From the sequence record LN881738.1: DNA of 41,318 bases. The stretch is one strand, 5' to 3'. This DNA comes from Clostridium phage slur17. Numbering within the stretch: the stretch's first letter is position 1; every line of letters begins with the position of its first letter. A model generated the notes under the pieces. That model did no database searches. It saw only the letters and a program-made list of their open reading frames with translations, and was not told where the DNA came from. The position numbers and the translations under genes are program-made. Positions 1-41,318 of the stretch are shown here, in pieces.

Positions 1-595
1 TGTCTGTAACTTCTTTAGTTAGAGTATCTTTAGTAGTATTAACATCACTAATCATGCTGTTTTTAGCGTCTGTAACTTCTGTAACTTTAGAGTCGAAAGT
101 TTCTTTTATACTATTAAATTCTTCGACTCTTTTAATTTCTGCTTCTTTTCTTGCTTCTTCTGTTTCTTTTATTTCTTCTATGCCTTCGACGACTTCTTTT
201 ACTTGATTTATTGTAACGCTGATATAATCCCATTTCGGTTCTTCTGTAATACTGTTTTTATCTATACTTTTCTCTATATTAATCTTTAAAGAAAAAGTAG
301 TAACAACTAAATCATCTTTGTAGAAAGTAAACTCTACTATTACATCCCCCGCAACTTCTGTTATGTTATTTTCTATTATAGTTGTTGCAATAGAATTTTC
401 TATAGTACAGCTCTGATAAACTATTTTCCCGTCTGGTCTTTGAAAATTTGCTATAGCTGTATATCCTGTCAAATCTTTTTCTATATTATTTTCTAATAAA
501 TTAATCTTAAATTCTATTGCATTATCATATTGCTTATATTTTGCAACTTGGTAACTTTTAGTGTTAATATCTACTGTATAAATTCTATCTCTCAA
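1..595 (-). CDS. Tail fibre / baseplate upper protein-like, N-terminal part; 3' end runs off the window start
   Basis: Hand translation of the minus strand: SD AAAGGAG (604-610), TTG start at 593-595, open frame to position 1 (LRDRIYTVDINTKSYQVAKYKQYDNAIEFKINLLENN...EEARKEAEIKRVEEFNSIKETFDSKVTEVTDAKNSMISDVNTTKDTLTKEVTD). Globular N-terminus then a coiled-coil-like repeat region. Not in the ORF track, which does not report window-truncated ORFs. Sits directly downstream of Tal in the tail operon. Confidence 0.5.
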   Translation of the reverse strand, partial: MRDRIYTVDINTKSYQVAKYKQYDNAIEFKINLLENNIEKDLTGYTAIANFQRPDGKIVYQSCTIENSIATTIIENNITEVAGDVIVEFTFYKDDLVVTTFSLKINIEKSIDKNSITEEPKWDYISVTINQVKEVVEGIEEIKETEEARKEAEIKRVEEFNSIKETFDSKVTEVTDAKNSMISDVNTTKDTLTKEVTD

Positions 596-609
596 ATTTA
601 TCACTCCTT

Positions 610-852
610 TTACTCTACCATTTTTGGAGTAAATTCTTTTATTATTTCTTTTTCCTTTAATACAAATTTTCCGTTTTCAATTTTATAATCACGAGGATTT
701 AAAATTTCTGGAATATCCTCGACAACTATTTTATCTAATATTTGCCTATAATCCTCTTCCCTATCTGCAAAGCAGGTATAATCCTGCTCCATCTCTGATT
801 TTATGCAATTATATATTTCTCCAGTTCTCTTGCTGTAAAAAATAGTAACCAT
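610..852 (-). CDS. Hypothetical small tail-module protein
   Basis: 80-aa ORF tightly packed between Tal and the fibre gene on the same strand; no recognisable motif. Confidence 0.45.
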   Translation of the reverse strand: MVTIFYSKRTGEIYNCIKSEMEQDYTCFADREEDYRQILDKIVVEDIPEILNPRDYKIENGKFVLKEKEIIKEFTPKMVE

Positions 853-878
853 ACTTCTTCTCCTTTTTTTTGAAAATT

Positions 879-2678
879 TTAAGCATAAACATAGTATTGT
901 ACTGTAATAAATCCTTCTGAAAAAAAATTCATTCCGAGCCAGTAGCCTATTGTTTGGCTTCCTGACATTTCGTAAGACACACCTCGCACAGATGCAGAAA
1001 GTTCCAATTGTGGATTTGTATCACTTTTTTTTGCTGTCGCTGATGTGCTGAAATAACTTAAACAGCTACCATTTGTTGATGTAGACCTTATTGCACAAGT
1101 TGCTTTAAAATTTTTACCTGCAAATTTTTTTGGTAAGTCTATTATGATTTTTGAATCTTTATAATCAAAGTATGTGTATCCACTTTCTTGAAGATAATAT
1201 GACTCTGTTACATCTGAACCGGTGTAGAATTTTGTATATAGCCCCGAGTCGGTCATTTTTGTAAATCCCTTCCCGCTTATAAGTTTCAATCCTTCATCAT
1301 CAATAAGAACATAAGGACTTACACTATTAAAAGCAATTTTAAAAGTATTTGGGTTAAAATGAACATCTCCAAAACTATCAATTTCCATTGTTTTGACTCC
1401 ATTATCATTTACGACTACCATTTCTCTAGCATTTATATACATGCCTTTTAGCTGTCCAAACCAACCTCTATCTAGCTTCAACTCCCCAATTAATGCATCT
1501 GCTATTGCTCCTTTTTCTATCCACATAGTTCCATCGTCGATTTTTGTAGTCTGTGCTTCTACTTGATTAGAGAACTCTGTAACATTTCCATGCGAGTTTA
1601 CTGCTCTTACTCTGAAATACCAAGTTTGAAAAGGTTCAGCTTGATGAACGTAAGCACTTGCTTGCCCTACAAAAATTCGATTTGTAAAATTAATTGTATC
1701 TGGTACAAAGTCTTTAATTTGAGACGCATAAACTTCATATTTGTAATAAGACTTATTTGTAAATGTCCATGTTAGATTGATAAAAGCGAATAACCCCTCT
1801 GCTGTCAAAGCTGGTGTATTCGGTAAAGTGTCTGGAAACTCTGAATCATCTACTTTGACATTATCAATAGCTTTTTTTACTGTTTCTATTTTATTTTCTA
1901 TATTATTAAACTTGTTATTTAAAAAGTCTAAATGATTTATTAAATCGCCAACTTCAATACTATAGTATTTTCGATTTATTGGGCTATAGTCTGTTTTAAC
2001 TACTCTAGCAGTTGCGTTAATGTTTAAATTAAAATCTCGTATTATCACTTCATCACCTAGATTGACTGTTTCTAGCATTTTGTAATCTTTATAATTTATA
2101 GTTGTAGATAAATCTACGAAGTTGACTTTGTATAAAACTTTTGGTAAATCAACTTGATTGTATTTAAAATAGTCTTTGCATTTTTCTCTTAATTCTTCTT
2201 CAACACTGACCTCATCAGAACTAAAATCTATAGCAACAATCTTTTGGGTAGCATATTTATTCATATTAGGACTAACAATGTATTTTTCTGTCAATGTAAT
2301 CATTTCATCTTCGTAGACCGCATAAGGATATATTTTTGTTACAATATCTTGTGTATCATACTCCGCTTCAAGCCCTGTTATATTTTTTTTATATGCAAGT
2401 AGCACATTTTTACTCTCACCTCTTTGATAATTTAAGAAAACATTAAAATTATCAAAGAAAAGTTTCGCAGTTGGTTCAAATTTTTGAATTAGAGAATTTT
2501 CGCCCTCGCAGATTGCGCTGTAAGGGCTTTGCATTTCAATATTAATAGTATTCCTTGCCTTGATGTCTGAATGTCCTCTAAATCTGTTCTGTTCCTCACA
2601 AGCACGAAAGACTCTTTCTAAAGCTTCTTCGCAAGTAATATCGTTCAATTCCAAACTTTCTATGAAATTATTAAGCAA
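879..2678 (-). CDS. Tail tip protein (Tal-like, tail-associated endopeptidase-type) with FN3-like segment
   Basis: 599-aa ORF immediately after Dit and the tape measure; C-terminal stretch YFRVRAVNSHGNVTEFSNQV resembles a fibronectin type III strand pattern. The frame stays open for about 98 codons upstream of the annotated TTG (to 2999), so the true start is probably further upstream (see findings). Confidence 0.6.
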   Translation of the reverse strand: MLNNFIESLELNDITCEEALERVFRACEEQNRFRGHSDIKARNTINIEMQSPYSAICEGENSLIQKFEPTAKLFFDNFNVFLNYQRGESKNVLLAYKKNITGLEAEYDTQDIVTKIYPYAVYEDEMITLTEKYIVSPNMNKYATQKIVAIDFSSDEVSVEEELREKCKDYFKYNQVDLPKVLYKVNFVDLSTTINYKDYKMLETVNLGDEVIIRDFNLNINATARVVKTDYSPINRKYYSIEVGDLINHLDFLNNKFNNIENKIETVKKAIDNVKVDDSEFPDTLPNTPALTAEGLFAFINLTWTFTNKSYYKYEVYASQIKDFVPDTINFTNRIFVGQASAYVHQAEPFQTWYFRVRAVNSHGNVTEFSNQVEAQTTKIDDGTMWIEKGAIADALIGELKLDRGWFGQLKGMYINAREMVVVNDNGVKTMEIDSFGDVHFNPNTFKIAFNSVSPYVLIDDEGLKLISGKGFTKMTDSGLYTKFYTGSDVTESYYLQESGYTYFDYKDSKIIIDLPKKFAGKNFKATCAIRSTSTNGSCLSYFSTSATAKKSDTNPQLELSASVRGVSYEMSGSQTIGYWLGMNFFSEGFITVQYYVYA

Positions 2679-3007
2679 ATCATACTTAATGTGTTGCGCT
2701 TTTACATTAATATACCCACCTAGATTTTTTGATATATAATAAATTCTAAAAAGCTGGTCTTTGTAGTCGGGCGAAGTATCAGCTTTAATTAATCTATCTA
2801 CTTTTATTTCTTTAAATAAAAAAGAGTCTTCGTAGATAGTAAATTCTAACTCGAAAACTCCGCTTTCTTCCTCTCTAACATGGTCATTTATTACATTCGT
2901 AAGAACACCTAAACCTAAATGCCTAAAATCTGTTTCTTTTTCTTCATATAAAACTAATTTTCCTTTTTGAATAATTAATCCCTCCCTCCAAATTTTAATT
3001 TAAAACT

Positions 3008-3763
3008 TTATAAAATATTCCATCTAGGATTTATTTTTATGCTTTTTATATCCCCTTCCCAGCTAATCTGATTTTCTCCTTCTTCAAGTATGGGAAAGTC
3101 ACTAAAAAGCTTATTATTTTCATTTACAATAATGTTATTTTCTTTGTTTATTCTATATACATTCATCTGTTCGCTATCTATTATTAAGTCGCTTAAAATT
3201 CCATTTTCTGCCACCCCTCTTAGCACTATGCTTTGAGTATTTATTTTTATACTTATGTCCCCTGCTCCTTCTATATAGAGAACAGGTTTTGACTCTCTAT
3301 AGAAATTTGTTATAGTAGCACTCTTTAGATTTAATACATTTAAACTTATAATTTCTTCTTCTGCGTATCTAAAAGGGTAGCAGTCGAATGTTAAAAGACA
3401 TGATGCAAAGTTTTTAAAATTTCTAGTTATATCTAGTTTATTGTTACAGCTTGCTAGATAATAAAAGTCACTATTACTTAAAAAAAGTTTTTTATATGAT
3501 ATATCGCCCTGTAGCCATTTTTTTATTTCTGTTGCAACTTCTTCTATATTACTTTGTCTTGCATCTATATCGCATTCTATTGTAAGCGTAAAATTTTCAA
3601 AACCTTTTTTTAGTAGTAAATCTCCATCTTTGCCTGGCACACTCACTCTTTCAACTTCCATCTGTGGAGCTGATAAGTCGTTTATATTGTATATTTTTAA
3701 ACCAAATTCTCTGCTGTCTCGACCGTTATAAACGAAAAACATAGCTTTATGCCCTCCTCTCAT
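3008..3763 (-). CDS. Distal tail protein (Dit-like)
   Basis: 251-aa ORF directly downstream of the tape measure gene, the canonical Dit position in siphovirus tail modules; call by synteny only. Confidence 0.55.
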   Translation of the reverse strand: MRGGHKAMFFVYNGRDSREFGLKIYNINDLSAPQMEVERVSVPGKDGDLLLKKGFENFTLTIECDIDARQSNIEEVATEIKKWLQGDISYKKLFLSNSDFYYLASCNNKLDITRNFKNFASCLLTFDCYPFRYAEEEIISLNVLNLKSATITNFYRESKPVLYIEGAGDISIKINTQSIVLRGVAENGILSDLIIDSEQMNVYRINKENNIIVNENNKLFSDFPILEEGENQISWEGDIKSIKINPRWNIL

Positions 3764-14453: not shown

Positions 14454-15026
14454 CTATATGTTCAACATTTCTCTATTTTTTGCTATCATTTGTTCCATTA
14501 AACTTACTTTAGACTCTCCAGCATCTCCACCGCTAGAACTAACAACCTTTGGAACACTATTGCCATTTATAAAAGCCCCTGGGTCATTTGCCTGCAATTC
14601 TTTTATATAATCATCTGCTCCCTCAAAAGCCCCGTTCTTATATTCAAGTCCCTTCTCTTTCATTTTTATTTTTACAGCCTCTTTTGAGAGATTGCTAGAA
14701 AACTTAAAATTACTTAAATAATTATCTAAATTTAAGTTATAAGTTTGCTCTGACATTTGATTTTCAATCAATTCCTTATCTTTTTGAGCCTGTTCGGCTT
14801 TACTCTTCCAGTCATCAACCTCTTTTTTTATACTCTCAACATCTATTTTTTCTAAGTCTTTAATTTTATTATTAGCTGTTTCGAGTTCAGTATTTTTACT
14901 TTCCAATTCTTCTTTTTTCTTTTCTACTTCTTTTTTATACTTTTCTATATCCCTCCCATTTTCGGACATGATTTTTTCTATAACCTCATCCTCTAAATTT
15001 AAATCTTTCAAAAACTCTCTTTTCAT
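14454..15026 (-). CDS. Scaffolding protein
   Basis: 190-aa strongly Glu/Lys-rich coiled-coil protein directly upstream of the capsid gene. Confidence 0.6.
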   Translation of the reverse strand: MKREFLKDLNLEDEVIEKIMSENGRDIEKYKKEVEKKKEELESKNTELETANNKIKDLEKIDVESIKKEVDDWKSKAEQAQKDKELIENQMSEQTYNLNLDNYLSNFKFSSNLSKEAVKIKMKEKGLEYKNGAFEGADDYIKELQANDPGAFINGNSVPKVVSSSGGDAGESKVSLMEQMIAKNREMLNI

Positions 15027-15157
15027 AAAAACCTCCTGTTTTCATTTACAATTACGCTTTTTTACGTGGTAGCATCACATATTGTCTAACTTTTTACGTC
15101 GCTTAGTAGACATCTATATAAATGAATTAAGTATTTTAAGCATAAAAATAAGTCTTA

Positions 15158-20436: not shown

Positions 20437-20464
20437 CTCCTTTCAATAAAAAAAGACTAAGTAC

Positions 20465-21061
20465 CTAGTCTTCTTGTTTTCGCTTTGCTCTTTGTAATGT
20501 ACTCTTACTAATCCCTGTCATTCTCTCTACTTGCGTATAAGAATTAGTTTTTAATAACTCTAAAGCATGTTCCATTTGCATCTTAGTATATTTTTTAGGT
20601 CTACCTTCCCGGAAATTAGGATTTTGCTTTGCTATCTCCTTACCTGCAAAAGTTCGTTCTAAAATTAGATTCCTTTCCATTTCTGCAACTGCAAGCAAGG
20701 TTGTTATAAAAAACTTGCCAAGAGTAGTATTTTCTAAAAGCCCAACATTAAGCACATGAACAGAAATACCACTATCAAATAAATTTTGTATAAGATTAAT
20801 ACCTTCTGTTGCATTTCTTGCAAGTCTATCCAATTTAGTTACAACTAATTTATCACCATCACGCATTTGCTTAACCATTTCCTCAAAAATAGGTCTGTGC
20901 GTGGTTGACCCTGTATGTTGTTCCCTAAATATTTTAGCATCACTATAATGTCTTTTTATTTCCTGCTCCTGCTGTTCTAAACTATTATTATCAATTTGTA
21001 CTTTACTACTTACCCGACAATACCCAAATATCATAAAAATACACCCCTTACTTTTGACCAT
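20465..21061 (-). CDS. Serine recombinase (resolvase/invertase family)
   Basis: Motifs IFGYCRVSS (catalytic Ser), [29 protein letters not shown]-terminal HTH. The probable true start is the second Met at about 21034, which has SD AAGGGG nine nt upstream. Confidence 0.85.
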
Positions 21062-21087
21062 TAGTTATGACTACCTTCTATATGTTC

Positions 21088-21116
21088 ATTTTACTACATA
21101 ATCAAATCGTAGTCAA
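21088..21116 (-). promoter_or_regulatory. Sigma-A-type promoter upstream of the serine recombinase gene
   Basis: On the minus strand: -35 TTGACT (21111-21116), 17-nt spacer, -10 TAAAAT (21088-21093). Confidence 0.4.
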
Positions 21117-21498
21117 TACCGTACAGTTATGAATACGAGTGAATTTTTTTAAATGAATCAAAAGTACTTATAAGTATTGTCATTACTCTTGCAAAAGGGC
21201 GTAATTGAATTGTTTGCCTGTGAATTTTGTAGTTTTTATTGCATCAAACTCATTCTCTATTTTTCCATGTCCTTTAAGTTTTGTCCGTATGTCCTTAAGC
21301 TTCGTCATGGCCATTTTAATGTTAAATAGCTTCTATCCCAGTATTTATAATGGCTAACGCCTATTTTAACGAATATGGGGTTTTCTTAGAGAATCAGACA
21401 TTCACTTTTTACTTTTCCTACTTTATATATAGCGAAAAAAATACATTGAATATATAAGCCTTTATTTTTCCCACATTCAAAAAGACAAAATAAAAAAA

Positions 21499-22107
21499 TC
21501 ACCCTATTAGGTCATTTAAAAACATGCTATATTCTTGATATTGTTCTTCATTAAGACCTAGATATACCTTAGTTTCTTCTATACTAGAATGTCCAAGCAT
21601 TTCCTTAACTCTTATAATATCAAATCCACTTTCTTCGTATATGGTGTAAGCGTATGTTTTACGCATGCTATGCGCTGTTATATGCTTAAGTCCAAAGTAT
21701 CTACCTGCTTCTTTCAGTATCACTGTTACTCTCTCAACGCCTATATGCGGAGTAACAGATTTTTGCCTGGATGGGAACATATATTCATAGTCCTTTTTAT
21801 CTCGTATGTAGCTTTTGAGTACTCTTTCTAAATTAGGAACTATTGGAGCTTTTCTAGGCTTTTTATTTTTCTTTCTTATGTTCTTAGTCTTTTCTTTTTT
21901 ACTCTCCATTATTAAGAAATAACCTTCGTCTATTGCATTTCTAACGTCCCTTACCTGTAGTTTAACTAAATCCCCTGCCCTGTAGCCCGTAGCCACCCCT
22001 AAGACAAATAAAACATAATTTCTAACACTCTTTTCTTTTAAGTATTCTTGTATATTTAAGACCATACGTTTGTCTTTGACTGGGTTAGCTGGTTTCTTAC
22101 TACCCAC
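21499..22107 (-). CDS. Tyrosine recombinase, catalytic domain only (integrase remnant or Xer-like)
   Basis: 202 aa with catalytic-domain signatures ATGYRAGDL (Arg), HITAHSMRKTYA (H-x-x-R), LGHSSIEETKVYLGL (His and Tyr); the N-terminal core-binding domain is absent and the 177 bp upstream is non-coding. Confidence 0.75.
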   Translation of the reverse strand: MGSKKPANPVKDKRMVLNIQEYLKEKSVRNYVLFVLGVATGYRAGDLVKLQVRDVRNAIDEGYFLIMESKKEKTKNIRKKNKKPRKAPIVPNLERVLKSYIRDKKDYEYMFPSRQKSVTPHIGVERVTVILKEAGRYFGLKHITAHSMRKTYAYTIYEESGFDIIRVKEMLGHSSIEETKVYLGLNEEQYQEYSMFLNDLIG

Positions 22108-26910: not shown

Positions 26911-27264
26911 ATGAATACTAGAATTAGAGACTTGCGAATTGCAGAGGGGCTATCTCAAATCGAATTTGGGAACAAGCTAGGAATGACTAGACACGAAATT
27001 TACAATCTTGAAAGTGGAAGAACACGAATAAAAGAAAGTGATTTAAAATTAATAACTTCAACATTTAAGGTAAACGAAAAATGGCTAAAAACAGGCGAAG
27101 GCGATATGTATACTTTTTCAAACAATAACTTAATAACAGCAGAAGTCTTATGCGCAATAGATAAGAATGAACGTCTTGCTAAAGCAATGTTAAAATTTAG
27201 CAAGTTAAATGACAAAGAATTAGAGGCAATGGAAAAGCTACTAGAATTATTTCAAAAAGAATAA
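26911..27264 (+). CDS. XRE-family HTH transcriptional regulator (CI-like repressor candidate)
   Basis: 117 aa; LRIAEGLSQIEFGNKLGMTRHEIYNLESGRT is a typical Cro/C1 HTH; the only plus-strand gene in this region. Confidence 0.85.
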   Translation: MNTRIRDLRIAEGLSQIEFGNKLGMTRHEIYNLESGRTRIKESDLKLITSTFKVNEKWLKTGEGDMYTFSNNNLITAEVLCAIDKNERLAKAMLKFSKLNDKELEAMEKLLELFQKE

Positions 27265-27296: not shown

Positions 27297-27694
27297 ATAT
27301 GTACATATTTATTTTTTAGTTTTTTGCTTTAAATACAGATAAATAATCTCTAATATATCCTTATCCCCTACTTTGTCCAACATTTCTTTTATTTCTTCTT
27401 TCAACCAAATCATCCCCCTATATGCAAGTAGAATAATACATTCTTAAAATTTGTAAAAAAATAACTTACAATTTTAATTATACCCCCTTTTGTTCGATAT
27501 TACAAGAGCACATGTACGATTTTTTGTCGCAATTAAACATTTATACTACAATAATAGTACCTTTTATCAAATTTTGCTAGTGGAAAATAATTCCAATTCA
27601 AAATACATTGAATTTTCTTACATTAGGAAAGTTCAGGGTCAATTTTTTTAACCTTGCGATTTTCCATTTGGTATAAGTTTTATATTTTCACATC

Positions 27695-27760
27695 AAAAAG
27701 TCACGCAAGTAGGAATATATATATATATATATATATTAAATCCTACTTGCGTGACTTTTT
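27695..27760. terminator. Bidirectional hairpin with (AT)n loop, copy 1
   Basis: 15-bp perfect stem GTCACGCAAGTAGGA (27700-27714) / TCCTACTTGCGTGAC (27741-27755) around a 26-nt AT-repeat loop; A5 before and T5 after. Confidence 0.55.
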
Positions 27761-27947
27761 GTTCTTAGATGCAAATTTCTAGTTGCTCTACTAACTCTAT
27801 TTCTTTTTCAATTTTAAATCCTATGTCAAATTCATTGTTTAAAAATGCCTTTTCAATTTCATCTAATTTACTCAATAACCTCTGTTTTCTAGTTTTTATA
27901 GCATTTCTTTAAATATTGTATGCTAATTATGTTTATTTTAATTGATG

Positions 27948-28005
27948 ACTCATTATCAAAAAGTCAGTCGACCTGGAATATATATATATATATATTCCAG
28001 GTCGA
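27948..28005. terminator. Bidirectional hairpin with (AT)n loop, copy 2
   Basis: 15-bp perfect stem GTCAGTCGACCTGGA (27953-27967) / TCCAGGTCGACTGAC (27986-28000) around an 18-nt (AT)9 loop; A5 before and T5 after; 70 bp downstream of the helicase operon's last gene. Confidence 0.55.
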
Positions 28006-28077
28006 CTGACTTTTTGTTTTTAGATGCAAATTTCTAATTGTTCTTTTGATTCTGTTTCTTTTTGATTAAATACAATT

Positions 28078-32312: not shown

Positions 32313-32399
32313 CTTTTTCTATAAAAGAAGGTTGCTTTTTTTCTTAGCCTTCTTTTTTTTAAATTTTACTATAATATAAAAATATTACTGTAATATTAT

Positions 32400-32585
32400 A
32401 AAAATATTATTTTAGTATTGTATATACAATATTTTAGTATTTTTAATATAATATATTGGTATTGTAAAAGCAATATGTAAATATTGTATTTATATTATTT
32501 GAATATTGTAATTAACAATATTAATATATTGTTGCAATATTATAAAAACAATACTACAATATTATTATAATATTATAAATATAAT
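32400..32585. repeat. AATATTGT-type repeat array upstream of parA (centromere/operator-like)
   Basis: Many direct and inverted copies of AATATTGTA / TACAATATT, e.g. AGTATTGTATATACAATATT, GAATATTGTAATTAACAATATT. Confidence 0.55.
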
Positions 32586-32591
32586 AATGAG

Positions 32592-33410
32592 GTGGAGAAA
32601 ATGGCTAATACAAAGCTACTTACGTACTTTAACATAAAAGGAGGTATCTATAAGACAACAACGTCTATAATGACAGCGTATGAACTTGCGAAAGATAAAG
32701 ATAAAAAAATACTCTTATGGGACTTAGATGTGCAAGCAAATCTAACACAATATGTTTATGAAATAAATCATAATGATAATACTACATTAGATATTTTAAA
32801 AGGGATTAGTGCTAATGATGCAATAGTCAAGTCACCTAATGAAAATTACATTAATGTAGACTTAATTCCTTCTGACATACAAATGGCTAGATTTGAACAA
32901 GAGCTATCACCTTTACCAGCCAGAGAAAAATTTTTAGCTCGCTGGTACATGCAAAACTTTAATACTTTGAGTGAGTATGATTATATTATCTGTGATTTAT
33001 CTCCACGCTACGATTTGACAGCTAAAAATGTGCTTTTCTTAGCAGATAGTATAATTATTCCAATTCAAGATAAAAACATTTCTTCTTTAAGAGGAGCAGA
33101 ATTATTTAAACAACTCTGGGATGTTGATAGAACCTATTTTGATAAGGAGGATAATATAAAAAGTACTATTTTAGTTGGATTTGAGAAGAAGAAAACTCAA
33201 ATTAGCGATACTTTCGATTCTTATCTGGAAGGGTTTAACGATATGAGAGATATTATGTTAGATACATACATTAGAAAAAATGAGTTTATAGAGAAGGCAC
33301 TATTAAAAAAACTATCTCTAACAGATTATACAAAAATAACTAAAGAGCATTTCAGCAGACAGGAATTTACTAATATGTTAGAAGAATTGAAAAGAAAAGG
33401 AGTGTTATAG
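32592..33410 (+). CDS. parA: ParA/Soj-family partition ATPase
   Basis: 272 aa; deviant Walker A KGGIYKTTT, A' motif LLWDLDVQAN, Walker B YIICDLSP. Confidence 0.85.
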   Translation: MEKMANTKLLTYFNIKGGIYKTTTSIMTAYELAKDKDKKILLWDLDVQANLTQYVYEINHNDNTTLDILKGISANDAIVKSPNENYINVDLIPSDIQMARFEQELSPLPAREKFLARWYMQNFNTLSEYDYIICDLSPRYDLTAKNVLFLADSIIIPIQDKNISSLRGAELFKQLWDVDRTYFDKEDNIKSTILVGFEKKKTQISDTFDSYLEGFNDMRDIMLDTYIRKNEFIEKALLKKLSLTDYTKITKEHFSRQEFTNMLEELKRKGVL

Positions 33411-33743
33411 ATGCCAAGTTTCAACAGAGACCTTTTAGTTGATAAAGAAAAACCGATTTTGAAAAATGGAACAATCGTACAAAATGATTCTACAACTACA
33501 GACAATAAGACATTAAACATATATAATCTAGTTAATAAGAAAAGTAAAAAAGTGACTATGAGTGCAACGCTTGATGAGGAGCTTGTAAACAAATTAAAAT
33601 CTTTTTCTATTGATATGAACAGCGACGTTAGTAAATTATTAAGTGATATACTAACTCAAATTTTATCTGATGTCACTATAAAAGAAGAGAATTTAAATAT
33701 ATACAATGAGAGAAATAGAAGAAATAAGACTAAGAAAAAGTAA
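33411..33743 (+). CDS. Putative centromere-binding partition protein (ribbon-helix-helix-like)
   Basis: 110 aa; start codon directly follows the parA stop; VTMSATLDEELVNKLKSFSIDMNSDVSKLLSDIL is consistent with a beta-strand plus two helices; basic C-terminal tail. Confidence 0.45.
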   Translation: MPSFNRDLLVDKEKPILKNGTIVQNDSTTTDNKTLNIYNLVNKKSKKVTMSATLDEELVNKLKSFSIDMNSDVSKLLSDILTQILSDVTIKEENLNIYNERNRRNKTKKK

Positions 33744-33749
33744 ATAATA

Positions 33750-33860
33750 TTATATTTATATTGTTTAGATATTACTTAAATATTGTATATATAATATTTA
33801 AGTAATATTTTAATATTATTATTACAATATATTAATATTGTTTAAATAATATGTTTTAAC
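33750..33860. repeat. Second AATATTGT-type repeat array, downstream of the partition genes
   Basis: AAATATTGTATATATAATATTT and TACAATATATTAATATTGTTTAAA; same motif family as the array upstream of parA. Confidence 0.5.
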
Positions 33861-33877: not shown

Positions 33878-34168
33878 TTGGAAAAGATGAACGTTTATCT
33901 GCAAATTGGAAAAGAGTTATCTGAAAAAATGACTAAATCGGAGTTGAATAAGTTTTCGCAAGAAGTAACGAATTATCTACGATTCGCTGGACATGATAAT
34001 GATATGAAAATTAAACTATTTCAAACAATTATAGAAGCAATTGCTAGAAAAAGAGTAACATTGCCAGCTGACAATGAATTTACACAAGGAATAATGTTAA
34101 GTAACGAATTAGAGATGACAACGAATGTAGGATTTATAATCGAAGGATTAAGTTATCATAATAACTAA
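33878..34168 (+). CDS. Hypothetical protein
   Basis: 96-aa ORF; the likely true start is the ATG at 33887 (MNVYLQIGKE...); followed by a strong terminator. Confidence 0.45.
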   Translation: MEKMNVYLQIGKELSEKMTKSELNKFSQEVTNYLRFAGHDNDMKIKLFQTIIEAIARKRVTLPADNEFTQGIMLSNELEMTTNVGFIIEGLSYHNN

Positions 34169-34177
34169 ACATTAAAA

Positions 34178-34210
34178 AACAGTGTATTTATTGAATACAC
34201 TGTTTTTATT
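34178..34210 (+). terminator. Intrinsic terminator
   Basis: ACAGTGTATTTATTGAATACACTGT hairpin followed by TTTTTATTT. Confidence 0.55.
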
Positions 34211-34400
34211 TCCGCATAGTTAATCTAAAATTGGATATTATATTATTTCTATATAAATTAAATTGACATTTAAATCCCTCATAGTTAATCTTAAAATTCT
34301 TATTACAATATTATTTCTAAATAAATTAAAAAATATTTTAAATCCCTCGTAGTTAATCTTAAAAGCGATACTATATACATTAATAATAATACTCTTCTAC
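34205..34400. repeat. Three tandem imperfect direct repeats of about 66 bp
   Basis: Core TTTAAATCCCTC(A/G)TAGTTAATCTTAAAA recurs at about 34215, 34280 and 34348 with similar intervening sequence (ATTATTTCTA.ATAAATTAAA). Confidence 0.6.
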
Positions 34401-34871
34401 TTAATTTTCAATTACATTTTGCAATTCTTGTTTACAACTTTCAATGCCTTTTTGTAATTCTTCTAAAAAAACTGATGTGCTATCGTCTATATTTCTTTCA
34501 GCAATTTCTTCGAAATTTTCTTTATTGAATTTTTTATAACTATCCCAATCCAAATTTTCCCACTCATTTTCACACCAATTTTCAAATTCTTCATAATCGT
34601 TTACGTAACAAATTTCTCCAAGCATATCGTTTAAATGAGTTGGCGCTTGATTTAATGTGAAAATATTAATTTCTTTGTCATCACCTAAAAGTTTAGCCCA
34701 AGTTTGAACTGCTATCGCTTCAACTTTTCCTTGTATATCGATATAAATTTTTATATTATTAGTCTCTTTGATTAAACAACTTTCTTTAAAAGCTTTTATA
34801 GCTTCTTCCTCTATTTTATCTATATTCATATCTATAACTCTTAAAAATCTTCTAGCTTTTTGTTTATTCAT
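34401..34871 (-). CDS. Hypothetical acidic protein (third gene of uncharacterised operon)
   Basis: 156 aa, Trp/Glu-rich (ENWCENEWENLDWDSY); no motif recognised. Confidence 0.5.
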   Translation of the reverse strand: MNKQKARRFLRVIDMNIDKIEEEAIKAFKESCLIKETNNIKIYIDIQGKVEAIAVQTWAKLLGDDKEINIFTLNQAPTHLNDMLGEICYVNDYEEFENWCENEWENLDWDSYKKFNKENFEEIAERNIDDSTSVFLEELQKGIESCKQELQNVIEN

Positions 34872-37901: not shown

Positions 37902-39752
37902 TTAAATTGCTTGATACATTGCGTAAGTAAAATAACCGTCTCCGCTTTGGTCATATCTAGCCCCGCCTAATGTTATAAACTTTTTGGTTTCATCTTTATA
38001 GCCATTTCCTCTGCCTGCTTCTATACTTGTATTGTAGCCATGATACACAATTCCATAATAACTATTACCTTTATATCCATAACAATAAGTTATGCCTACA
38101 TAAGTACTATTAATAGTTTGCGGTGGGTTATCATCAGCATCCGCAAAGCCTGTGATAGTTCTAAAATAAGCAGTACTTCCTTGTATTGTGTTCTGTATAT
38201 TATTTTTGTAAGTTTGTAAAGTTGAATTTTTGCTAATTAATATGCTTTTAGCTGTATTACTTTTAACCATTCTGTTAAGTGCAAGTCCTGTAAGTGTTAT
38301 TTTGGTCATAGCCGTTGAGCTATTTGCAATTATGCCCATTGCTGTTGTATTATTTACAAAAACACTTATAGACGTATCGTTATTTGCAACTGTCGACATA
38401 GCTTGTGCGTTATTTGCAATTATGCCCATTGCTGTTGTATTATTTGCAATAGTAACGTTATTTTCTGAAATAGTGAGCATAGCATTGAAAGCAGTAGAGT
38501 TATTTGCTATCTTAGTAAAAGCAGTAGTTTTATTTACTAAAATATTTATAGCTGTTGTACTTTTCATAAAAGCATTTAATGACACTGTTTTACTGAAAAT
38601 ACTTTCTATAATTCCCACTCGGTCACCAACTTTATTTACTATAATAGAATTATTTGCAAAAGTTGCCATTGCGATTGAACTTTCTAAAATTGCATCCGAA
38701 ATTTTTATTTTTTCCTCAATATCTCGTTGTGATATATTACGTGTGGTTTCCATACCATCATAATTTTTTACTGCATTTTTTAAAATCGGGAATATTTCTT
38801 CATTATAAGTTATTGCCATAATTTGACCTTTACCAGAAGCAATATTTGATTTTATTGTATTTATATAATTTAAAGAAGTTTGTAAATTATACTTCATTTC
38901 TAATAAATTAGGGATTATTTTTTCAACAGTAACATTATTAGTTAATATTTTATTTATGCTATTTTGGTTTTGCACTAATACTTTTGTAGCTTCTAAGTCA
39001 TTAAATATTTCCATTACGGAGTTTTCGTTACTTGAAATTTGTGTCATAGCTTCATCACTATTTATAATCGCATCCCTAATCACATTATTTTTTAAAATTG
39101 CTCTAATGACTGGTGACTCTGTTGTAACTCTTAAAATATATTGACCTAATAAATCCATAGCATTTGAACTTGCTACAACTGCGTCCATGCTTGATTTACA
39201 CATAGTTAAAGCTACTATTGCATTACTATTATTAAGTATTGCATTAGTAGCTTCCACATTTGCTAATATTTCTTCTATAGTTGTAAGATTTTCTAAATCA
39301 GTATTATCTAAGCTAAAAGTAGAATTAAACCATGCTCCTATAGTTGACTTTTCTTGTTCTCTTGTAACATATCTATCATACCCTGCTTTAAATTTTTCCT
39401 CTAATGAATTATAATGCTCTATAGTCATTTCTTTTACTACATTATCAGCATTTCCTAAGCTAAATATATCTGTTCTATAAAAGGCATTTAATTGTTCCCC
39501 TAGCTTAGTGCTTTTATTAAATAAATTATCAATATCAGTTTCTGAAAAAGCTGTGTAAACTGTTTCTCTTATTCCTCTATCAGAAAATAAATATAAACTA
39601 TTTAAATATAATTCTTCCCATATCCTAGCATTTCCAATAAACAGCACATAACTATCTAATCCATTTAGTTTTATGTCTTGCAAATAACTTAAAAAATTTA
39701 GTGGCTCGCCTTGCAAGTCACTATTCACTTTGTATGTCTCCGCCCAACTCAT
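37902..39752 (-). CDS. Tail fibre / receptor-binding protein with tandem 19-20 aa Asn/Thr/Ala repeats
   Basis: 616 aa; repeats such as NNTTAMGIIANNAQAMSTVANNDTSISVF; Gly/Tyr-rich C-terminal globular region; start overlaps the upstream fibre stop by 1 nt. Confidence 0.6.
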   Translation of the reverse strand: MSWAETYKVNSDLQGEPLNFLSYLQDIKLNGLDSYVLFIGNARIWEELYLNSLYLFSDRGIRETVYTAFSETDIDNLFNKSTKLGEQLNAFYRTDIFSLGNADNVVKEMTIEHYNSLEEKFKAGYDRYVTREQEKSTIGAWFNSTFSLDNTDLENLTTIEEILANVEATNAILNNSNAIVALTMCKSSMDAVVASSNAMDLLGQYILRVTTESPVIRAILKNNVIRDAIINSDEAMTQISSNENSVMEIFNDLEATKVLVQNQNSINKILTNNVTVEKIIPNLLEMKYNLQTSLNYINTIKSNIASGKGQIMAITYNEEIFPILKNAVKNYDGMETTRNISQRDIEEKIKISDAILESSIAMATFANNSIIVNKVGDRVGIIESIFSKTVSLNAFMKSTTAINILVNKTTAFTKIANNSTAFNAMLTISENNVTIANNTTAMGIIANNAQAMSTVANNDTSISVFVNNTTAMGIIANSSTAMTKITLTGLALNRMVKSNTAKSILISKNSTLQTYKNNIQNTIQGSTAYFRTITGFADADDNPPQTINSTYVGITYCYGYKGNSYYGIVYHGYNTSIEAGRGNGYKDETKKFITLGGARYDQSGDGYFTYAMYQAI

Positions 39753-41318
39753 TAACTCACCTCTTCTTTTATTTCTTCTATTTGATTACCTTTAAAAGTC
39801 GTTTTTACTTTACTTACTAATACATTATCTATATATTTTTCGTCTACTATAGTCCCATCTGCATTAAATTTAGTTATAGTTTTACTAACCGAGTCTAAAA
39901 TATCTGTTATAGAGCCGTCTGAATTAAAAGTCGTGCTTTTTTTAATGTAATCTAACTCTTTCGGTTTTTCTAATAACTCATTCCATGTAACTTTTCCTTT
40001 TGACGCTTTCCCCGTGTCTTCTCCATTTATAAACCAATTACCGTTTTCGCCGATTGCTGGAGTATAACCTTGTTCCCCTCTAAGCTCTGTATATATATAT
40101 TCCGTTTGTCCTTCTTCTCTAATACCTAGCTGACTTCCATTCCAATTAAATTCTAATTTATTTCCTGTCGCTCCTTTTAGATTTGTATAGCTATAGTCCT
40201 CTTGACCTTCTATTCTAACGCCTAGCTCCGTACCATCCCAACTAAATTCAATGCTATCGCCTTTTTGACCTTTCAAATCTGTATAAGTATAATTCTCCTG
40301 TCCTTCTATCCTTACACCTAGTCGTGTGCCATCCCATGCAAATTCGATATTGTCACCTTTGAGGTCTATATACTTATAATCTAATTCGTATTGTTGCCTA
40401 ACGCCTAACTGTGTGCCATCCCAATTAAATTCTAGGTTCTTGCCGTCCACGCCCGCTAGAGAACCTAAGTCTTCCCATTTAGTTTGATATATATAAATAT
40501 TTCTCCCTATAATCCAGCAATCTCCGATAGTAGGGTCTAATGGTAAGTTATCTATAGAATCTAATTTTCCTAAAATCCTCAAAGATGCCCCTCTAGCTGG
40601 TTTTTGGGTATCTATATTATTAATCCACCAGTTTCCATTTTCTCCTATTGTTGGAGTATAACCCTGCTCCCCTTTCAATTCTGTATAACTATAATTTTCT
40701 TGACCTTCTATCTTTATACCTAATCGTGTGCCATTCCAATTAAATTCAATACTATCACCTTTATCGCCTTTTTGACCTTTTAAATCTGTATAAGTATAAT
40801 TCTCCTGTCCTTCTATCCTTATACCTAGTCGCGTGCCATCCCAATTAAATTCTAAGCCATCTCCATTTTCACCCTTTATTTTTATGTCAGGAACTTTGAC
40901 CCAATTAGTGTTGTCCCAAACATATAAATCAATTTGGTTTTCTATTGTTGCGCTTTTTACAAAGTAAGCATCACTTAAAGTTGGATTGACTGGAAGTGCT
41001 GATATATTATCTAAACTTCCTTTTATTTCTATTCCTACCCCTTTTAACTCTTCTTTTGTGGGGATTGCATTAATAGCGTCTGTAACTTCTGTCTGCATAG
41101 TTTCTTTAGCTGTAGTTACTTCGCTAATCATAGTATTTTTAGCTGTTGTAACTTCCGCTTTAACTGTGTTAACTTCGTCTATTAATGTTGTTTTAGTAGT
41201 ATTAACATCACTAATCATGCTGTTTTTAGCGTCTGTAACTTCTGTAACTTTAGAGTCGAAAGTTTCTTTTATACTATTAAATTCTTCGACCCTTTTACCT
41301 TCTGCGATTTCTAATTCT
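39752..41318 (-). CDS. Tail fibre protein with six ~30-aa tandem repeats; N-terminus lies beyond the window end
   Basis: The frame is open from 41318 down to the stop at 39752; the ORF track starts it at an internal Met (41218). Contains coiled-coil heptad-like units (EVTDAKNSMISDVNTTK) and six copies of (L/I)EFNWDGTRLGIRIEGQENYTYTDLKG. Confidence 0.6.
   Translation of the reverse strand, partial: ELEIAEGKRVEEFNSIKETFDSKVTEVTDAKNSMISDVNTTKTTLIDEVNTVKAEVTTAKNTMISEVTTAKETMQTEVTDAINAIPTKEELKGVGIEIKGSLDNISALPVNPTLSDAYFVKSATIENQIDLYVWDNTNWVKVPDIKIKGENGDGLEFNWDGTRLGIRIEGQENYTYTDLKGQKGDKGDSIEFNWNGTRLGIKIEGQENYSYTELKGEQGYTPTIGENGNWWINNIDTQKPARGASLRILGKLDSIDNLPLDPTIGDCWIIGRNIYIYQTKWEDLGSLAGVDGKNLEFNWDGTQLGVRQQYELDYKYIDLKGDNIEFAWDGTRLGVRIEGQENYTYTDLKGQKGDSIEFSWDGTELGVRIEGQEDYSYTNLKGATGNKLEFNWNGSQLGIREEGQTEYIYTELRGEQGYTPAIGENGNWFINGEDTGKASKGKVTWNELLEKPKELDYIKKSTTFNSDGSITDILDSVSKTITKFNADGTIVDEKYIDNVLVSKVKTTFKGNQIEEIKEEVS

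Follow-up and report, generated by a model that had tools for sequence, protein, structure and literature searches.

The window (the whole stretch of DNA analysed, 41,318 nt of Clostridium phage slur17, record LN881738.1) is almost certainly a contig that was broken at k = 127 in the Gp21 tandem array of a CDSH1-type circular or circularly permuted molecule. Its two edges are parts of a single gene, CDHS1_21 (product Gp21; gp20 in phiCD38-2), and not two paralogues. The configuration is already known and ordinary: the assembly broke at a tandem repeat, and the gene and the phage concerned are both present in GenBank.

Sequence of the window edges

Comparison of the window ends showed that positions 29-127 and 41192-41290 agree over 99 nt without any difference. 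The first 155 nt (1-155) and the last 155 nt (41164-41318) were aligned without gaps, and with the flanks of the 99-nt core included (7-142 versus 41170-41305) identity was 91%. Among 100 dinucleotide-preserving shuffles of the sequence, none equalled the 99-nt identity, even when 3 mismatches were allowed. The identity between the window ends is real, and chance is excluded. An earlier sequence-only reading of the window had described an identical 99-bp segment at both edges with related but diverged flanks, and both observations were confirmed. Identity did not reach the outermost bases, as a terminal overlap of a contig would have it: 1-28 and 41291-41318 differ from their counterparts.

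Both edge ORFs lie on the minus strand and are translated as VEEFNSIKETFDSKVTEVTDAKNSMISDVNTTK over the common segment. The 5' part of a BppU-like tail/baseplate gene (1..595, minus strand) begins with a TTG start at 595 and runs off at position 1 after 198 codons and 1 nt. The 3' part of the same gene (39752..41318, minus strand) enters at 41318 and comprises 1 nt, 521 codons and a stop. When 41318 was joined straight to 1, the frame was broken and a stop followed 2 codons on; a frame clash at this join had been predicted correctly by the earlier reading. A single ORF was restored by one additional base, or by any 3n+1 bases, between 41318 and 1.

Comparison with the CDSH1 genome

Megablast searches with the window ends returned the C. 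difficile siphophages phiCD38-2, CDSH1, phiCD146, phiCD111 and AR1075-1 (genus Leicestervirus). For genome comparison, the whole CDSH1 record (KU057941.1, 41,619 bp) was rotated and compared with the reverse complement of the window. After this rearrangement, 0 mismatches were found across all 41,318 nt. The only CDSH1 sequence absent from the window is a stretch of 301 nt, located exactly between the window ends (41,318 + 301 = 41,619). The window runs unbroken across the end (41619) and the start (1) of the linear CDSH1 record, at window positions 20437/20436.

In both phiCD38-2 (gp20, 2463 nt, AEF56895.1) and CDSH1 (CDHS1_21, 2472 nt, ALY06964.1), one gene annotated as 'tail fiber protein' holds both window fragments. 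The 595-nt fragment matches, without a single difference, the opening 595 nt of phiCD38-2 gp20 and gene offset 9-603 in CDSH1. The 1567-nt fragment was aligned to the 3' end of the gene with 0 mismatches in CDHS1_21 and 2 in phiCD38-2 gp20. The gap between the two fragments measures 301 nt in CDSH1 as well as in phiCD38-2, and these missing 301 nt are made up of 73 nt of unit sequence and one full 228-nt unit of the tandem array described below. The frame clash at 41318/1 arises because 3n+1 nt (301 in CDSH1) are missing there. As a separate observation, codons 376-377 of phiCD38-2 (HM568888) gp20 read 'VF', compared with 'EV' in the window, CDSH1 and phiCD146. Two differing nucleotides, 2 nt from each other (window positions 41087 and 41089), are responsible; they may be genuine variation or a mistake in the older entry.

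Seen by itself, the window presents two truncated ORFs that have a module in common and diverged flanks, and the earlier reading had offered two paralogous fibre genes as one of its options. In such a case, a linear element would carry one paralogue at each end, with a recombined 99-nt module present in both. This option is refuted by the location of both fragments in the single gene CDHS1_21/gp20. In 8/8 complete relatives examined, one ORF (2025-2691 nt) contains the two fragments as its 5' and 3' parts; the BppU_N domain and the start of the stalk are all that the N-terminal fragment contains, and the C-terminal fragment holds only the rest. Host DNA was found at neither end, the window matching a complete phage genome over its full length. 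Paralogy retains practically no likelihood. The other option of the earlier reading, a circular genome cut inside one fibre gene with a duplicated helical module, was essentially right: both fragments belong to one gene, and the window sequence is continuous over the CDSH1 record ends. The earlier reading missed the sequence absent between the window ends (301 nt in CDSH1) and the 228-nt tandem array of at least three cores.

Tandem array and assembly graph

Tandem Repeats Finder was run on phiCD38-2 gp20 and returned a unit of 228 nt in 2.5 copies with 99% matches. In the protein, the repeat unit corresponds to 76 aa (RVEEFNSIKETFDSKVTEVTDAKNSMISDVNTTK-DTLTKEVTDTKNDLTNVVTTAKESMISEVTTVKEELEIAEGK). 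The exact 99-nt core is found three times, spaced by 228 nt, in phiCD38-2, CDSH1, AR1075-1 and the DSM 104450 plasmid. Unique sequence borders core copy 1 on its upstream side and copy 3 on its downstream side; both flanks of copy 2 are repeat-internal. The first array copy in the window (29..127, minus strand) is preceded by the unique flank ...EAEIKR and is located at gene offset 468 in phiCD38-2 and 477 in CDSH1. The last array copy, which is the third in CDSH1 (41192..41290, minus strand), is followed by the unique flank TTLIDEV... (gene offset 924 in phiCD38-2, 933 in CDSH1). In the window, copy 1 is followed by 28 nt of repeat-internal sequence (from 127 to 1), and copy 3 is preceded by 28 nt of repeat-internal sequence (from 41318 to 41192). 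Downstream of the array, degenerate sub-repeats of the helical stalk with 87-nt spacing were located by repeat search (41078..41242, minus strand).

De Bruijn graphs were built from both strands of circular CDSH1 with k-mers as vertices and (k+1)-mers as edges, using 23 k values from 55 to 500. k = 127 alone among these gave an edge with exactly the length and sequence of the window. At this k the other edges measured 327 and 155 nt, and the edge sum closes (41,318 + 200 + 28 + 200 - 127 = 41,619). At k of 77 and above, the array is the sole repeat that branches the CDSH1 graph. The exact repeat at lag 228 covers 327 nt and exceeds k = 127. Both contig-end 127-mers consist of 28 + 99 nt. The first (1..127) contains the core and 28 nt of repeat-internal downstream flank (DTLTKEVTD); it is a vertex at which the k = 127 graph branches, common to core copies 1 and 2. 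The second (41192..41318) contains 28 nt of repeat-internal upstream flank (ELEIAEGKR) and the core, and is a branching vertex common to copies 2 and 3. The largest k accepted by SPAdes is 127. That the 99-bp identity might mark a recombination or assembly join had also been considered in the sequence-only reading; it holds in the sense of an assembly break, the ends being the junction 127-mers of the k = 127 graph.

No vertex branched at k = 127 in synthetic genomes that contained 1 or 2 cores, and these would close into a circle. From synthetic genomes with 3, 4 or 5 cores the window was returned exactly. The source therefore carries at least three cores, and any core number of three or more fits the window equally well.

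The following sequence of events very probably accounts for the window. It would be one contig from a short-read de Bruijn graph assembly with a largest k of 127. The assembled molecule, which is identical to CDSH1 over the extent of the window, would be circular or circularly permuted. Its sole unresolved repeat would be the near-perfect 228-nt (76-aa) array in the helical stalk of BppU-like Gp21. The flank pattern of three cores would make two 127-mers branch (core + 28 nt and 28 nt + core), and the graph would be split into a 41,318-nt edge, the window, and short edges of 327 and 155 nt. The window would consequently begin and end in one gene with one core copy per end, and 73 + 228m nt (m at least 1; 301 nt in CDSH1) would be missing between position 1 and 41318. 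The sequence identity, the structure of the gene, the reproduction at k = 127 and the recurrence in other assemblies are direct results; the assembler, its k and the true copy number of the source are inferred, and the agreement with k = 127 is strong but indirect.

A simpler arrangement would be an overlap of the ends. Merging the two 99-nt copies keeps the frame and yields a 668-aa ORF, and the true molecule would then be a one-core circle with a 668-aa gene and a genome of 41,163 bp. One-core sequences are indeed on record: a 668-aa NCBI protein on a 6,124-nt contig (P0008) is identical to the overlap-merge of the window ends, and phiCD146 was deposited with one core. However, the outer 28 nt of each end clash with the sequence that they would overlap and must derive from other repeat contexts. 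A one-core genome is unbranched at k = 127 and would not yield the window contig, and CDSH1, which is identical elsewhere, has three cores. The one-core records may themselves be collapsed, a collapsed duplication having been described for phiCD146 in the PhageTerm preprint (10.1101/108100). We consider a simple overlap very improbable and retain the break at k = 127 in an array of at least three cores.

Draft assemblies and repeat number in related phages

The exact 521-aa end fragment of the window was found in 52 index blocks and the 198-aa fragment in 60, and most of these end-fragment blocks are on contigs of 20-50 kb. Among the places listed, both end fragments were always at a contig terminus, in C. 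difficile draft contigs of ~40-41 kb. Both fragments are present on contig JAHGED010000020.1 (40,737 nt), which begins and ends with the same 155 nt as the window. Several further contigs of differing total length match one or the other window terminus exactly, and the terminus 41192..41318 recurs in other public contigs. The family search returned many 'partial' proteins of the Gp21 type. One of them, P0019 (521 aa, 79 members), likewise opens with ELEIAEGKR and occupies contig positions 1-1567 in two assemblies. Because the same termini are found across many contigs, the break is systematic in short-read assembly of this plasmid-prophage. Many public C. difficile drafts hold the plasmid-prophage cut in Gp21, and the gene is routinely annotated as two 'partial' proteins. 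With Gp21 cut in short-read drafts, the repeat copy number is therefore unreadable or collapsed in short-read data.

The number of cores differs among relatives. Three were counted in phiCD38-2, CDSH1, AR1075-1, the DSM 104450 plasmid and pB12_1 (plasmid records with three cores: NZ_CP021446.1 and NZ_CP132142.1). Four are present in pCd23_2 (NZ_CP037803.1, 896 aa), and two diverged cores in phiCD111 (744 aa). phiCD146 has one core as deposited (LN681536, PHICD146_20020, 674 aa), its gp20 corresponding to CDSH1 Gp21 less 149 aa inside the array. The RBPs of phiCD38-2/CDSH1 and phiCD146 are reported to be identical or nearly so, and the Gp21/gp20 proteins of these phages differ by little more than the 149 aa of array. 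The region of phiCD146 that had collapsed is not named in the PhageTerm preprint (10.1101/108100). We infer that the one-core allele of phiCD146 is probably an assembly collapse, because the array is the sole graph-branching repeat in CDSH1 at k of at least 77. The one-core allele of P0008 may likewise come from a collapsed assembly. The most reliable evidence of true copy-number variation is the difference of three versus four cores in complete circular records. Judged from sequence, the differences in core number among relatives are consistent with recombination or slippage inside the array.

Gp21 and the neighbouring tail genes

At the N-terminus of Gp21, the Pfam domain BppU_N (PF10651) was matched over residues 16-134 (36.9 bits, E 3.6e-9, cutoff 23.1), and the NCBI name for P0002 is 'BppU family phage baseplate upper protein'. 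The upstream tail-tip genes form a block on the minus strand (610..3763). It contains Dit (3008-3763, minus strand) and Tal/endopeptidase (879-2678, minus strand), both assigned by Pfam Sipho_tail / Prophage_tail search and CDSH1 annotation, and an 80-aa ORF (610-852, minus strand) assigned by CDSH1 annotation. Next downstream of Gp21 is the gene of Gp22 (616 aa; 37902..39752, minus strand), the reported RBP of CDHS-1, which matched PDB 7QLR chain A 'CDHS1_22' over 1-616 of 616 residues (1306.8 bits, E 0). Gp21 is positioned between Dit/Tal and the RBP gene, as expected for the BppU family. In the Gp22 gene, periodic repeats of 30 nt (10 aa) were noted at 38307-38569 (minus strand); they fit the alpha-helical superhelix reported for PDB 7QLR.

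Gp21 resembles BppU of TP901-1 at the N-terminus only, and the authors of the CDHS-1 study likewise give it a BppU role (10.1101/2021.07.05.451159). According to the same work, anti-Gp21 serum caused no neutralisation of CDHS-1, and anti-Gp22 serum neutralises infection. Gp22 was reported to bind cells and to represent a new class of RBP (10.1101/2021.07.05.451159; structure PDB 7QLR). As the serum against Gp21 is inert and that against Gp22 is neutralising, the window edges lie in a gene other than the receptor-binding one; the RBP is the product of the next gene, Gp22. The proposal that identical modules at the window edges belong to a receptor-binding gene and serve host-range switching is not supported by these published data. 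An accessory role of gp20/21 is regarded as still possible by Royer et al. (PMC10100898), and gp21, gp22 and BppU are not mentioned in a PLoS Pathog 2025 article (PMC12680318).

The stalk of Gp21 (residues ~130-382) contains no proline, has a dominant hydrophobic periodicity of 3.6 residues and shows self-similarity at offsets 11 and 22. An AlphaFold2 monomer of Gp21 was calculated from an 11-sequence alignment (mean pLDDT 53, pTM 0.22) and was used for secondary structure only. In this low-confidence model (pLDDT 53), residues 123-382 are predicted to form a nearly unbroken helix, preceded by a beta domain at the N-terminus and followed by a beta-rich region at the C-terminus. These features support a helical, fibrous stalk that is probably a coiled coil. 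The array would encode a trimeric coiled-coil spacer whose length would be set by copy number, via slippage or unequal recombination. A search of the PDB with the Gp21 sequence gave no match.

Further repeats were observed in the C-terminal half of Gp21. Beta-strand repeats of ~32 aa (87-105 nt; EFNWDGTRLGIRIEGQENYTYTDLKGQKGD) are present in six copies in two blocks (40025-40852, minus strand), and no Pfam family was above threshold for them. A larger duplication of 157 nt, with copies 594 nt apart, is located in the same half of the protein.

As a lead of modest weight, a 228-nt repeat of varying copy number is located in the stalk of the protein that is thought to carry the RBP. Each 76-aa unit would add an estimated ~11 nm of alpha-helical stalk. 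The 76-aa module might be a true variable-number tandem repeat whose count sets the reach of Gp22 and affects adsorption to S-layer (SlpA) types, which we regard as a rather unlikely possibility. A possible effect of Gp21 stalk repeat number on adsorption is the sole biological lead that is left.

Topology and additional features

Phages of this type are carried by three circular C. difficile plasmid records (NZ_CP021446.1, NZ_CP132142.1 and NZ_CP037803.1). Two of the three were compared in full and are about 88-100% identical to the window, depending on the segment. phiCD38-2 is described as the first C. difficile prophage shown to be kept as a circular extrachromosomal plasmid (PMC6127314). 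Since the window is continuous across the ends of the CDSH1 record, the molecule that was assembled, and with it the source of the window, appears by sequence to be circular or circularly permuted. Genes for ParA, an HTH repressor, a short tyrosine recombinase and a serine resolvase are present in the window and fit a plasmid-prophage lifestyle.

Direct repeats at contig ends are the usual sign of phage contigs with direct terminal repeats or of circular phage contigs, and the repeat could in principle mark where the virion DNA physically ends (as a direct terminal repeat or at a cos/pac end) instead of an assembly break. Against this, identity stops short of the exact ends, with 28 nt differing on each side, and the repeat lies in frame inside a structural gene. 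Deposited records of the phage group start at terS, ~20 kb away, and phiCD146 was classed as a pac phage (10.1101/108100). The geometry at k = 127 accounts for the end positions to the base. Virion termini are an extremely improbable explanation, and the ends are best read as those of a broken contig.

Several other elements were recorded in the window. The serine resolvase (198 aa) and the short tyrosine recombinase (202 aa) are encoded at 20465-22107 (minus strand) and adjoin terS, though the phage type is reported to be plasmid-borne and not integrating; resolution of plasmid multimers is a possible role for them. AT-rich iteron-like repeats with 11/22-nt spacing (32373-32586 and 33747-33859) are located on either side of the ParA gene (32592-33410) and a 110-aa ORF (33411-33743). 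They are in inverted orientation, with 83-nt arms that are 77% complementary, and may be candidate partition (centromere-like) sites. Two related palindromes with (TA)n centres (27694-27761 and 27957-28016), one of them with perfect 30-nt arms and no spacer, are found in AT-rich sequence that separates the HTH repressor gene (26911-27264) from the helicase operon. These palindromes could be a putative origin or terminators.

Three direct repeats of ~44-57 nt with a spacing of 65-68 nt (TCCCTCATAGTTAATCTTAAAA) were found at 34204-34380, between a 96-aa plus-strand ORF (33878-34168) and a 156-aa minus-strand ORF (34401-34871). The sole Rfam match in the window is the GP20-b RNA motif (15053-15112, minus strand; 55 bits versus a gathering threshold of 36.2), just upstream of the scaffolding-protein gene (14454-15026). 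No tRNA was found in a tRNA scan of the window.

Comparison with known systems

The value of the window is mainly cautionary: it shows how a tandem repeat in a published phage can interrupt a short-read contig. Its edges are not a recombination junction, a paralogue pair or a host-range cassette.

The closest known counterpart is phage CDSH1 (CDHS-1, Leicestervirus CD382), with which the window shares sequence and gene order, both window ends lying inside CDHS1_21. The window differs from it by being reverse-complemented and rotated and by the absence of 301 nt of the tandem array; the core number in the source of the window is at least three. The same single gene with the same 228-nt array as in the window is present in phiCD38-2 (gp20) and in the plasmid-prophages NZ_CP021446.1, NZ_CP132142.1 and NZ_CP037803.1. 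The last of these (pCd23_2) has several regions at 88-99% identity to the window and four cores, and was rejected as an equal of the window for this regional divergence and core number.

BppU (ORF48) of Lactococcus phage TP901-1 has, like Gp21, a BppU_N domain followed by a long helical region, and its gene is likewise located between Dit/Tal and the RBP gene. Past the N-terminal domain, no similarity between the two proteins was detectable. In contrast to TP901-1 BppU, the stalk of Gp21 is built of repeats and much longer, and the large C-terminal part is rich in beta structure and includes 32-aa repeats; the partner RBP of Gp21, Gp22 (7QLR), was reported as a new class.

With contig breaks induced in de Bruijn graphs by tandem repeats longer than k, the window shares the branching k-mer ends, the reproduction in silico and the recurrence. 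Compared with such breaks, the window shows nothing unusual and is a textbook case.
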